NCBI GenBank assembly: GCA_951406725.2
Contig: OX597838.1
Location: 8,122,001-8,186,000 of the forward strand
Source: Octopus vulgaris
Lineage: Eukaryota
Length of the DNA stretch: 64,000 nucleotides
Direction: 5' to 3'
Notes under the pieces: model-generated
Databases searched by the model: none
What the model was told of the DNA's origin: nothing
Seen by the model: the letters and a program-made list of their open reading frames with translations, nothing else
Made by a program: the position numbers and the translations under genes
In this document: positions 1,912 through 10,699 of the stretch, piece by piece
How positions within the stretch are numbered: the first letter of the stretch is position 1
Layout: each line of letters starts with the position of its first letter

Positions 1912-2417
1912 CTGCAAGGAAAAATATAACAAAATTAAACGAAAACATAGAAATGTCTTACGTAAAGTATACTAGCCATCTCAATATGGCTAACCACTGT
2001 AACTTTTAGCCCCAGGAGATCATCGTCTCCAGCTGGCTTTAGACACACTTTCTGTGCACTTATGGTATTTGCAAAGGGAGGTCATCCCTCTCTCGTAAAC
2101 CTAAGTGACATGCACGGACTGCGGTTTCTAAGTATTTGCCTGTCTTCGGCGTACGGCAGTCACCGGTTTTCGATCTCATTCACCGGTTTTACATCTCATT
2201 CAGAGATTTATTATAGAAATGTCTATGTGCGGTGTATTGTTTTATGCTTGCTTGAAACGTTTGTAAAAGAAAAAGAAAGGGTGATTGTTAATGAAGCCTG
2301 AAAATCAAGTATCTCTGTGATCATTTGATTGTCTACAAACCTCTGCAAAACAATAGGTAGCTATCTTTAAAAGGGAAGGACAATTTTGGTAGTATTAGAT
2401 AAGCCTAAACAGAATTA

Positions 2418-2632
2418 GCAAGTGATTTAATCTGAGATCGTGTGCTGAAACGAAAACAATTGCAGCGTGGAAGGTGTTTGTAAGCCATTTAAGAAACACA
2501 CAAAAGCCGTTCGATTCACTTCAACATTTAAATTTAATTTGTCAAAATATTTTCGTCGCTTTAAGACCGCGACCTGTTCACTGACAAAAATGCGTGCTGC
2601 ACGGCTTACAAACACCTTCCACGCTGCAATTG
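2418..2632 (-). mobile_element. 215-bp non-autonomous insertion with internal 30-bp inverted repeat and hammerhead-like fold (Penelope/retrozyme-like)
   Basis: 13-bp direct repeat ctaaacagaatta at 2405-2417 and 2633-2645. caattgcagcgtggaaggtgtttgtaagcc (about 2457-2486) recurs inverted at 2603-2632. Confidence 0.7.
2538..2588 (-). ncRNA. Minimal type I hammerhead ribozyme candidate, G3:C8 core variant
   Basis: Minus strand: UUUGUCA (stem I), GUGAACA, G, GUCGC-loop-GCGAC (stem II), GAA, AAUAUU (palindromic stem III), U17, UGACAAA (stem I'). Confidence 0.6.
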
Positions 2633-2950
2633 CTAAACAGAATTAACGGGATCTTATAGCTTAAAATCTTTGGTAATATCTCAACTGGATGAATGCTATC
2701 GTGGAGTTCTAGAACAACAGCCAAAATACGAGCACCATCCAACAAAAAATGCGAAATGACAACAAAAGAGTCAAGTGTAGAAGATGATGACCCAGGAGGG
2801 GGTTTCTAAACGTTGGCTTTCATTGTTGAAAATAGCAGCTAAATAGGTTTCAATATAAATTTAAATGGAAGACTCGTGAAGAAATCTATGTGGCGTGTAC
2901 TTGCAAAGAGACAGGATGGCCACTGAAGGAATTTTAATCATAGCCTAGTA

Positions 2951-3151
2951 CAGTGCTTTTCAAACTTTTTGCTGGAGCGGAACCCCAAGGAAACATTCCA
3001 CTGGCTCGAGGAACCCCTGTGCAATAATTTAATAGTCTTATGCACACATATCTGCACAGGAGAATTAAAAATTACTGCCGATTTTAGCAGCTTTGTAACT
3101 TCTTGCGGAACCCCAGGACTGTACTGGCGGAACCCTGGTTGAAAACCACTG
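2951..3151. mobile_element. hAT-type MITE
   Basis: Termini cagtgcttttcaa / ttgaaaaccactg; 8-bp TSD gcctagta (2943-2950, 3152-3159). Confidence 0.85.
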
Positions 3152-3301
3152 GCCTAGTACAATCGCAACAGACTTGCAATTAAAGAAGCGATAATAGAGA
3201 AACATTACCAACAAAAGATGTAAAGCATACATAAAGACGGCCAACTAAAGGAGGTACGAATACGCCAGGAGTGTAACTGAGCAATATCGGAGACTACATA
3301 C

Positions 3302-3384
3302 CTTTGAGAGCAGGATGTGAGGGTAACTGATGGAAAAACTGTCGTGGAGCCATGAAGTTCTCGAAGCAGGATTTGTAGACATTC
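3302..3384 (-). CDS. Drgx: Drgx-like 83-nt penultimate exon
   Basis: Acceptor (ct)n-tccttaaacAG, donor aaag|GTATGT. Phase 2 in and phase 1 out exactly bridges the flanking exons. Encodes (G)[27 protein letters not shown](G). Confidence 0.85.
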
Positions 3385-3886: not shown

Positions 3887-3992
3887 TGTGTCCATTTCAA
3901 TGTACACAAATTTGACATTAAGTATGGCATCCTCTACTTTCAAATATAAAAAAAAAGAACATACGACGTTCTTTCAGCGCCATGCTGCTTAC

Positions 3993-5605
3993 CCATCTAA
4001 AAACGAGAAGAATGGTCTTGACGTCTGTCCCACGGCACCAAGATCTGTGAACATTGACTGTATCATGGGTGGAAAACCTGTGGAACCTGTTCCGGCTGTG
4101 GTAGCTAAAGATTTGTCTCCAAATAACTGTTGGTAAGTAGAAGCTTGAGTTGTGTTAGCACGTACGGTCATTTCCGCTGCAGGTCGTACACTCCCGACCA
4201 AAGTTCCGGCGGCACCAATTTTACCGACTGTGAGACGGCTGGCTTCTGTTTTCACCATTTCCGAATCGTGTGCCGGCGACTGGCTTGGGGACCGATCCGA
4301 ATCTAATGTGTTGGTGTTGGTGTTGGTGTTGGTGTTGGTATTGGGAACGGTCAGAGCAGCGGTGTTAGTTGTGTTGATGGATATTGCTGACGGGAGCCCA
4401 CTTTTCTCTGAAGATGTCAGAAGGTGTGAGGCTGCGGACGACGAAGAGGAAGAGGATGAAGAGGAAGTAGATGAGGAAGCAGATGATAGAGAAGAGGAAG
4501 AAGATGATGAAGACGAAGATGACAAATTAAAAGTGTTATAGTTGTTGCTATTACTTGTGTTATTATTATTAGTATTATTATTAGTATTAGTATTATTATT
4601 ATTGTTGTTATGAGTACTGTTGTTGCTGTTGTTGTTGTTGTTGTTACTGTTAGAGGTGTTATTGTTTATATTATTATTATTAGTATTATTAGTATTATTA
4701 CTATTACTATTGTTATTTTCAGTACTATTGTTGTTATTGTTGCTGTTGTTGACTCCGGTTGTAGAAAATTTCTTGCAATCGTGGTATTCCTGAATATATT
4801 TTTCGGCAATGGCACTGGCCGTTAGAGCGGCGCCGCTATAGCCAGACATGACATGCGCAGCTGTCACTTCCTCTATGACCGCATCAACATTCAAAGGCGA
4901 ATTTTGGCGCCGAATCGCAACGGAATTCTTTAGAGCCACACTCAGTTCTTTAGCGTTGCTACTGTTGTTGCTGGTGCTGTTGTTGTGGGTTTTGCTGTTG
5001 TTGCTGCTGCTGTTGTTGTTGTTGTTGTTGTGGGTTTTGCCGTTGCTGCTGGTGCTGCTAGTACTGCTGCTGCTGCTGCTGTTGCCCCCGTTGTTGTTGT
5101 GTTGAAGAATGAGAGCCTCGCTTTCGTAGGAAGAATCATCGTCGTCGTCGTCGCCATCGTGCACCATAACCGACGAAAACGAGGCTGCCGACACTTTTTC
5201 CGAATCGTTCATACTAAGAGGGTGAGCAGCAACGCCATCTATATCTACTGTCAACAGGGAATCGGTCATTTCCTCTTTCAGCGTAATGCAATCTGATTGG
5301 TGAGGTTGATGTTGGTTGCTAGGAGACAGATGGCGCTGACGCTCCAGTTGTCGTGTTTCCGTTTCGTCATCACTGTGTAAGTCTGCCATGGCAACATCGA
5401 CCAGGGAATCCTTGTCCTTGGCGATCAAAACTTGACCATCCGGACTAAGATGGTCAACATTCCTCAGTGATTTTTGGTCGTCTTGTTGCTGCTGCTGTTG
5501 TTGTTGTTGCTGCAAATGTGCTTGTGTTGTTTGGTTAGGGTGCTGTTGTTGTTGAGCAAACCGTTCACTTTTACGCCATTTTGCTCGACGGTTCTGAAAC
5601 CATAC
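3993..5605 (-). CDS. Drgx: Drgx-like large exon: helix 3 ([16 protein letters not shown]50) plus poly-Q/N/S/D linker
   Basis: Polypyrimidine acceptor (tttcttttccAG) at 5606-5607, then an open frame [21 protein letters not shown] that runs into ORF 3989..5515. Donor GG|GTAAGC, phase 2; 1613 nt. Confidence 0.93.
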
Positions 5606-5955
5606 CTGGAAAAGAAAAAAAAAGAAAGAGAACTAATAAACACAGCGAAAAAGAGAACCACGCGGAAATAAACTAAAACAAATTTACTCAGGGACATCAT
5701 CTGGAGGAAAACTAGATAGCTAGGTAGATTAGTAATATATTAAATACAACAAACATTGATTACAAACTTTGGTAAAAAGGCCAACAAGTGGGGGTTAGTG
5801 GATTACATCGACCGCAGGGTCCATCCGATACCTGCTTTATCGGCCTTGAAAGGATTAAAGGTGAAGTCAACCTTGCCGTGATTTGAACTCAGAATGTATA
5901 GATAGACGAAATGCCGTTAAGCATTTTCTCTGACATTATAGACAAATACTTATAT

Positions 5956-8743: not shown

Positions 8744-10596
8744 GTTAGTTAGTTAGTTAGTTAATTTGGCTCAAAAGCAAATAGCAAGGCCATGTAGGGG
8801 GACATGGAGTTAGGTACAGGGTGGTGTTCATGTAAAGAGTTCAGGCCACTTGAGGTCAAGGGAGGCTTTGAACAAAGCGGTCGTCGGCATCTTCACCATC
8901 TCGTCTGGCAGCTTGTTCCACGGATCCGCAACCTGGACGGAGAAAGCTCCTCTCCTTCGATTGAGATGAAATCGTCACAGGTAGAGCTTTTCGGAATGAC
9001 CCCGCTCTGGAGCAGGAGTGAAGAACAGCTCTTTCGAGAGGTTACACTTTCCGCTTATGATGTTGTGGGCGATAATGAGATCACCACGGCGGCGGCGTTT
9101 TTCAAGAGAATAAAGGTCGAGCGTCCTCAGCCTTTCTTCGTAGGACAAATTTTTGAGACCATGAACCATGCGGGTAGCCAGCTTCTGGACTCTTTCGAGA
9201 TGCTGTATGTCTTTGAGGAGATAAGGAGAAGAGGCTTGAATCCCATACTCCAATATGGGTCTCACCAGCGTGACATAGAGTGGTAGGAATATGGCTGCTG
9301 TGAGCATTCCGAATGACCGTCGAATCAAGAACAGAATTCCGCGTGCTTTGTTGGCAGCATGGACGCACTGGGCCGAAGGCGAAAAGGAGGAATCCACCAA
9401 GATACCTAGGTCCTTTACCTGATCGGTCCTCTCCAGCAGCAGACGAACCGGCTCGAAATCAAGTTGAGTTGCAGGAGTAGAGCCGACAGGCAGATGACAG
9501 CACTTTGACACGTTCAGACACAGGTCCCAATTGTTAGACCACTTCCAAATTTGGTGGAGGCATCGACGAAGATCCTCTATATTACCGCGAGGAGCGACCA
9601 GTTTGATATCGTCGGCAAATAGAAGGGTGTGTTGCGTGAGGTCGTCGGGCAAGTCATTTATGAAGACTAAGAACAACAAGGGCCCAAGCACTGAACCTTG
9701 AGGCACGCCACTGCTCGCACTGGAGACGTCGGACCGCGAACCCTTAACTTGGACTTGGAAGGAGCGATCTGAGAGGAAGGCACCAACCCATCGTACAATA
9801 TCCGGATGGAAACTATATGCTTGAAGCTTGACAAGCAATAGGCGGTAGTTTACCGAGTCAAAAGCTTTGGCAAAGTCCAGTAAAACGATGTCAACAGCAT
9901 CACTATCATCGAGGATGCGCGTCACCAATTCTTCCATTACTAGTAGGTTGGTCAAGCATGATCTCTTCGGCACGAAGCCGTGTTGGGAATCAGAGATAGA
10001 GGCTGTGTTTAGGAGGTGGAGCATCATACTTTTCTTAAGGATGGTTTCGAACATCTTGCTGATAATTGATGTAAGGGAAACCGGTCGGTAGTTAAGCGGG
10101 TCTTCGCGGCTCCCTTTCTTGAAAATTGGGCAGATTATCGCTGTTCTCCAGTCTGCAGGTATAACACCCGTCGCCAATGACATATTGAATAGTCGTGTTA
10201 AGGGCTCGCAGATGACCGGAGCCAACGCTTTGATAACCCGTGGGTGTATGCCGTCAGGGCCGTGACCTTTGTTGACATCGAGGTCTTGAATAACACGTTT
10301 GACTTCGTCCCGCGTGATGACCAATCGAAGCATTGGAGGTACCGATCTATCAAATGGAGGGGGTTCACGACCATCATCTTGTTTGAAAATAGTTGAAAAA
10401 GCCTCGGCAAATAATTGACTCTGTTGATAAGGGTTCTCAATCGATACGCCTGTTGAGTCTACCAACGTTGCAATCTGGTTGTTCAAGCGGGAATTCCGCT
10501 GGACATGGGCAAAGAAGGTTTTTGGATTGCTACTGGCGTTTGCCGCGATTTTGTATTTTCTGAAGCGTTCTTTCTTTTCAATTTTCACGGCTCTGA
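8744..10596 (-). mobile_element. 5'-truncated CR1-type LINE (RT domain) with (TAAC)n tail
   Basis: ORF 8975..10588 has GPDGIHP, NYRPVSLTS, QHGF, LDFAKAFDSV, GVPQGSVLGP and FADD. The frame continues past a TGA at 8975-8977 to WNKLP...FKASLD and a stop at 8828-8830. gttagttagttagttag tail at 8744-8763; no endonuclease domain. Confidence 0.9.
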
Positions 10597-10699
10597 TCTC
10601 TACAGTAAAAGGACTAAATACTTATTTTTTTCAAACGTATCCAGCGAGAGACCTCTACTGTGATGGTAGGTTTTCAAAACAGCTAGCAGGCCATGCTAC

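Follow-up and report, generated by a model that had tools for sequence, protein, structure and literature searches.

The minimal type-I hammerhead at 2538-2588 on the minus strand of the window (the whole 64-kb stretch of octopus DNA analysed), which is the sense strand of the octopus Drgx gene, is best explained as the pseudo-LTR hammerhead of an abundant Penelope-like element (PLE) family that naturally carries a G3:C8 core. We hold this explanation with good confidence in a form in which the predicted ribozyme is likely kept for the element's own cycle, as a weak, dimer- or protein-dependent activity, and is close to inert in Drgx, where the insert probably does little in the pre-mRNA and its intronic position is incidental. 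Our analysis establishes the anatomy of the motif, the counts of its family, its link to open reading frames (ORFs) encoding a reverse transcriptase (RT) and a GIY-YIG endonuclease, a single origin of the swapped core and a non-coding position. The earlier note on this DNA, which described a core-swapped hammerhead in the last Drgx intron, missed that the motif is, judging from its sequence context, the ordinary pseudo-LTR ribozyme of a Penelope-like retrotransposon.

Read from the sequence letters of the minus strand, every part of the hammerhead listed in that note is present between 2588 and 2538. Stem I comprises 7 bp (TTTGTCA at 2588-2582 with TGACAAA at 2544-2538) and leads into the swapped core GTGAACA (2575-2581), which corresponds to G3-U4-G5-A6-A7-C8-A9 with G3 at 2581 and C8 at 2576. 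Stem II has 5 bp (GTCGC at 2573-2569 with GCGAC at 2559-2555) and encloses loop II at 2568-2560, and the segment at 2546-2554 holds GAAA (2554-2551) and the palindromic AAUAUU (2551-2546) of stem III, which is predicted to form only between molecules. When hammerhead numbering is applied to the sequence, the predicted cleavage site falls after U17 (2545), between 2545 and 2544. The three-helix junction contains U4 G5 A6, A9, G12 A13 A14, A15.1-U16.1 and H17, and positions 3 and 8 can form a Watson-Crick pair, although this is G3:C8 and not the canonical C3:G8. An unpaired extra G at 2574, between A9 and G10.1, had been omitted; an extra base at 9/10.1 is a trait of PLE minimal hammerheads, with H as the consensus in the available part of the published account (PMC4209133), and the G10.1-C11.1 pair and the palindromic 15.2-16.2 with loop 3 described there are also found here. 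A generic core scan, which admitted any Watson-Crick or wobble pair at 3:8, returned this motif as its 1 match in the 64-kb window and 0 matches in 100 Markov resamples. The folding energy of the motif is unremarkable (z -1.39), and an Rfam scan of it found no hammerhead family at E<=10. Across the genome the hammerhead pattern has 4,942 exact matches and an anchor downstream of it 10,194, with 0 for the controls. CUGANGA-based searches and Rfam miss thousands of such motifs in one genome.

The motif lies within a 215-bp PLE insertion (2418-2632, minus strand), and repeat analysis of the window places it, as claimed, between two identical 13-bp target-site duplications (CTAAACAGAATTA) at 2405-2417 and 2633-2645. 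The insertion contains the pseudo-LTR 5' end with the hammerhead, the first 23 codons of the PLE ORF (2420-2488, minus strand, with the ATG at 2488-2486) and a short stretch of the element in inverted orientation. This inverted arm (2603-2632, plus strand), not mentioned previously, is a perfect 30-bp mirror of 2457-2486 and ends at the first common 3' end of the family. We rejected a MITE reading of the 30-bp inverted repeat, given that one arm is internal and that the family is linked to RT-endonuclease ORFs. Nor does the window, with its single copy, contain the head-to-tail tandem units, each with a hammerhead, by which non-LTR retrozymes are defined in the available part of bioRxiv 10.64898/2026.07.22.740005. 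Genomic copies are 94-98% identical across most of the insert (40 of 215 candidates scored in a genome search), and the insert is 92-93% identical to the pseudo-LTR of two copies with long ORFs, L178 and L180.

Several features connect these short copies to a parent element. Upstream, longer family copies continue into a GIY-YIG ORF, and all five of the long-ORF loci examined have the G3:C8 motif about 1 kb past the stop codon. L178 (G000:C25, 44.30 Mb) is a near-complete copy with about 1,000 open codons, a C-x3-C-x2-C linker (CQSNCAVC), a C-terminal endonuclease and a 1.8-kb inverted 5' segment, and with such a copy in the genome the family looks recently active. The GIY-YIG match covers residues 915-1005 of a 1,025-residue PLE ORF (E 1.8e-05). 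Pfam gave no RT match in the PLE ORF; its RT-like motifs were recognised by eye, and we take them to be those of an RT. In the tandem copy L180 the sequence after the hammerhead continues in frame into the RT-endonuclease ORF, which starts 56 nt past the predicted cut, and the frame over the motif has stops. The hammerhead is therefore 5'-UTR and non-coding, and coding constraint was rejected as a cause of the swap on the same two grounds. The family shows the features of EN+ PLEs: RT and, at the C terminus, a GIY-YIG endonuclease within one ORF, together with a tail, partial tandems and inverted 5' copies. The hammerhead sits in the pseudo-LTR as in other PLEs, and the linker before the endonuclease follows the CX2-5CxxC pattern of Neptune and Nematis elements in the available text of PMC8557442. 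The sequence fits a short, 5'-inverted pseudo-LTR copy of a Neptune/Nematis-type PLE, an assignment based on linker and endonuclease.

Within the family the swapped pair is close to invariant. Copies with the same flanks read G3:C8 in 5,187 of 5,630 cases, with G3 and another base at 8 in 303 and another base at 3 in 140; the check on genomic copies proposed earlier thus finds G3 and C8 fixed together in the family, and related lineages retain C3:G8. Single departures from G3:C8 look mostly like post-insertion decay. Among relatives with a shorter loop II (the first 100 of 331), C3:G8 was found in 51, G3:C8 in 15, G3:G8 in 2 and C3:C8 in 1. A tree of these 100 relatives and the window copy, with positions 3 and 8 masked, places all 16 G3:C8 rows in one 22-row branch (100/89), every row of which has C8 and whose old members are only 50-61% identical to the window copy. 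C8 needs two changes in all on this tree, one of them on a very long branch. As the tree reads, the swap happened once, on an old branch to which U17 also maps, and is not repeated covariation, and the G3:C8 state is, to judge from the same rows, kept across 40-50% divergence. The earlier suggestion that a compensatory double change points to selection for catalysis holds in so far as the swap is fixed and long kept, but since it is a single event on the tree, such selection can be inferred solely from one origin and long retention. Two further points govern how these comparisons should be read: the remaining core positions were set by the search patterns, which by construction makes them conserved between families, and Fisher tests on the relatives were set aside as evidence because rows and sites are non-independent.

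The base at position 17 may help to explain how the swap came to be tolerated. U17 is present in 60/60 young copies, and near this position C is absent from all 22 rows of the branch and present in 52 of the 79 rows outside it, in a fixed register that was assumed because automatic assignment worked in just 23 of the 100 relatives. It has been stated, with data not shown, that G3-C8 is less active with C17 (PMC3884650). We propose that the swap would have preserved the 3:8 pair and would have been tolerated because, with U rather than C at position 17, stem I cannot be lengthened into the core by a G3-C17 pair.

We consider it unlikely, as an alternative, that the motif is a catalytically dead relic: the swap would then have arisen in one source element, through drift or a templated double change, and any retention of the fold would serve protein binding. 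The loss of C8 within the family could be read in this way. By hand count, C8-to-G accounts for 37 and C8-to-T for 46 among 100 listed of the 303 copies changed at position 8, and G3-to-C for 11 among 100 listed of the 140 changed at position 3. The G3:G8 copies look over-represented, and broken-core templates may also have been copied. Three young-family copies read C3:G8, and double changes at 3 and 8 may accordingly arise by templated events. An old sister lineage also seems to carry U3.G8, most copies appear to derive from uncut RNA, as discussed below, and in the available text of the respective studies mutating the hammerhead of an anole PLE leaves insertion in vitro unaffected, RNA-seq ends were not seen at its cut (PMC11167929), and Naiad PLEs thrive without canonical hammerheads (PMC8557442). 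Against a dead relic, both changes restore a Watson-Crick pair, and the G3:C8 state has persisted over the divergent branch described above. No mismatch family was found as an intermediate: among the GTCAC-stem relatives, G3 with a base other than C8 occurs in no family and in 14 scattered copies. Pairing is retained elsewhere in the motif as well, with a stem II pair that switches from A-U in 67 of 79 rows outside the branch to G-C in 17 of 22 inside it, and a subfamily difference in stem I (A to G at 2542) that leaves the pairing intact.

Two candidate routes to the swap were rejected: a G3:A8 intermediate family, represented by only 4 of the 14 scattered copies, and a micro-inversion of the TCA-N-TGA palindrome as the source of G3, for which there is no G-to-C excess at position 3 (11 of 100 listed). 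When the core was compared with the following 47 nt in the young family, 0 and 3 non-CpG subfamily-level sites were found, respectively, so the core is not clearly more conserved, and loop II alone stands out. As separate observations, a single insertion (L044; G000:C18, near 35457851) has a forward arm with C3:G8 and an inverted arm with G3:C8, which suggests a templated double change or recombination, and old relatives with a 5-nt loop II (loci L312-L341, 50 matches; an 11-row branch of the tree) mostly read U3.G8, making them a possible natural lineage with a wobble core.

The ends of the short copies bear on how these copies are made. We used an anchor lying outside the motif to select 86 copies (75 loci among the first 100 matches listed, all on one contig). 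Of these, 83 end at one of two 3' sites, +86 to +91 or +147 to +150 relative to the cut. An inverted upstream piece is present in 36/86, the whole motif is spanned by 60/86, and the start lies 44-74 nt before the cut in 39/86. The window copy also starts within this last cluster, and the first 3' site is where its inverted arm ends. Starts within -5 to +7 of the cut were found in only 8/86 copies, and the idea that 5' ends at the cut site are a fossil of cleavage was rejected on this count. Two 3' ends and inverted upstream pieces are known for PLEs (PMC11167929, PMC8557442), and the accessible part of the anole study describes an RT with two internal start sites and unprocessed RNA as template (PMC11167929). 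By the same logic, the short copies described here would be the uncut 5' end of the PLE RNA. This RNA would start about 55-64 nt upstream of the cut site, and the RT would initiate internally at two sites within the first 100 nt of its ORF and copy the uncut RNA back to its 5' end, giving rise to thousands of copies of 150-210 bp that contain the whole motif and often an inverted arm. The genomic copies support the view, from in-vitro work on one clade, that a PLE RT copies uncut RNA from two internal starts, and do so for another clade and in vivo. Long copies (L048 and L068-L097; 526 matches) contain a branch-point and acceptor-like stretch, the end of which lies about 15 nt ahead of stem I and which resembles the intron of Drosophila Penelope; most short copies begin at this stretch, so either a splice site or a start site may lie there.

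Folding of the motif in its intron context, with a nearest-neighbour model that leaves out tertiary contacts, is consistent with a weak ribozyme. At 37 C the pair probability is 0.62-0.90 for stem I and 0.98-0.99 for stem II, and at 20 C that of stem I drops to about 0.34. The all-AU stem III has a pair probability of 0.000 in the monomer, as expected for minimal PLE hammerheads, and a G3.U17 wobble pair reaches 0.61-0.67. A double-hammerhead dimer is not favoured either (-25.4 kcal/mol at 37 C compared with -27.6 kcal/mol for two monomers). In the available part of PMC4209133, PLE minimal hammerheads are inactive as monomers and weak as dimers, and an anole PLE hammerhead, from the accessible text of PMC11167929, cuts only with PLE protein and is dispensable for insertion in vitro. 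The earlier assertion that the G3:C8 double swap restores hammerhead activity stands as regards some rescue, but that rescue is partial for C3G/G8C in the available parts of both sources (PMC11167929, PMC8495972). If these systems are a guide, the putative ribozyme likely cuts only with the help of the PLE's own protein. Cutting in trans may also occur, given that stems I and II of this copy fold at 37 C and that RNA of the family appears to be abundant.

Several known systems resemble this one, and the comparisons that follow extend to the available text of each source. The metazoan PLE pseudo-LTR minimal hammerheads of Cervera and de la Pena (2014; PMC4209133) share the type-I layout, G10.1-C11.1, the extra 9/10.1 base, the short palindromic stem III, the pseudo-LTR location and thousands of dispersed single or inverted copies. 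They also include a natural covariant at 3:8, U3-A8, with about 1,300 matches in Schistosoma; the octopus motif differs in its G3:C8 pair, which is not reported in that part of the paper, in having G where the extra base there is H, and in a stem I of 7 bp. Covariation at 3 and 8 is likewise shared with the natural core variants of Perreault et al. (2011; PMC3088659), there as U3-A8 only. In the Anolis Poseidon element (Frangieh et al. 2024; PMC11167929) C3G/G8C is the same double change and partly restores cleavage, and two internal RT starts near the start of the ORF, AT-rich targets and a mainly uncut RNA template are further points in common. The Poseidon change is, however, a laboratory mutant in an element whose ORF overlaps the hammerhead, whereas the octopus swap is natural, with the hammerhead in the 5'-UTR and a Zn-finger-like linker. 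The Neptune and Nematis EN+ PLEs of Craig et al. (2021; PMC8557442) share the C-terminal GIY-YIG domain, the CX2-5CxxC linker, partial tandems, inverted 5' copies, a tail and a (TA)n bias, with a tail of 30-40 nt compared with about 60 nt in the octopus PLE. Vertebrate intronic ribozymes (intronic hammerheads and CPEB3; PMC7761336, PMC10919898) likewise have a ribozyme motif in sense orientation within an intron, but these are single, conserved and kept by the host, whereas the octopus motif is a young repeat copy with no sign of host use.

Natural U3-A8 and the rescue of mutants by G3:C8 have thus already been published, and a natural G3:C8 PLE hammerhead appears, from the sequences and reports at hand, to be new; we found no report of a natural G3:C8 hammerhead in the literature searched, whose coverage of relevant papers is incomplete. 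The motif represents a natural counterpart of a textbook compensatory mutant, in a retrotransposon that looks recently active and whose sister lineages in this genome have the canonical core. G3:C8 and these sister lineages offer a ready comparison for asking whether cleavage is the reason that PLE hammerheads persist.

The location in Drgx matters only if cutting of the pre-mRNA is demonstrated. Homeodomain and OAR Pfam matches identify the host gene as the octopus DRGX orthologue, and both DRGX probe primers of PMC12036646 match its large exon with 1 mismatch each. The coding part of the last exon, with the OAR motif (PF03826, E 2.4e-07), lies at 1727-1911 on the minus strand, and an 83-nt penultimate exon (3302-3384, minus strand) restores the OAR frame. 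Joining the large exon directly to the OAR exon would break the reading frame, and this splice was rejected. Since the 83-nt exon is needed for the OAR frame, the last intron, which hosts the insert, is the 1,390-nt GT-AG intron at 1912-3301 (minus strand). The predicted cut is 757 nt past its donor and 633 nt ahead of its acceptor; the earlier statement that cleavage would fall just before the OAR exon is right as to order, but loose as to distance.

It is improbable, in our judgement, that the intronic copy cuts Drgx pre-mRNA enough to matter, most plausibly through pairing with abundant PLE RNA or with the help of PLE protein, and thereby lowers full-length OAR-containing mRNA. The sense orientation in the last intron and the intact core and stems would allow it, the family sequence is deeply covered in run X1, and DRGX is expressed in octopus arm neurons (PMC12036646). 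Contigs of run X18, which has the same organism label, reach into the ends of the insert, so more than one animal may carry it; no empty-site joint was among the 15 joints listed. Nevertheless, this is one of thousands of similar insertions, 92-98% identical to its relatives and without any sign of special conservation, the 64-kb window contains no second copy, and the all-AU stem III is weak. In run X1, which is only guessed to be RNA, depth is 16.4 on both exons flanking the intron and nil over part of the intron, which points to spliced Drgx mRNA; this reading is based on contig depth and not on a listed joint, in a run that may or may not carry the insert, and contigs give neither RNA ends, strand nor level. 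The proposal that cleavage severs the Drgx pre-mRNA therefore sits poorly with a lone copy that forms no stem III as a monomer, in a family of copies made mostly from uncut RNA, and with depth that suggests spliced mRNA. Similarly doubtful is a broader version in which a cephalopod PLE hammerhead with G3:C8 and U17 is activated by PLE protein or RNA, such that sense intronic copies cut only where the PLE is expressed and the OAR exon of neuronal Drgx is removed.

Other features of the locus were noted during the analysis. The same intron holds a MITE-like element at 2951-3151, with CAGTG...CACTG terminal inverted repeats and an 8-bp target-site duplication (GCCTAGTA) at 2943-2950 and 3152-3159, which is high-copy in all four runs and which we presume to be hAT-like. 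Another high-copy repeat lies at about 1960-2150, near the last acceptor, with a depth jump in all four runs. An upstream Drgx intron contains, on the strand of the gene, a 548-codon open frame (8975-10621, minus strand) in which LINE-type RT motifs were seen by eye, and the Drgx exon at 3989-5632 (minus strand) is very long and of low complexity, with runs of poly-N, poly-S and poly-Q.
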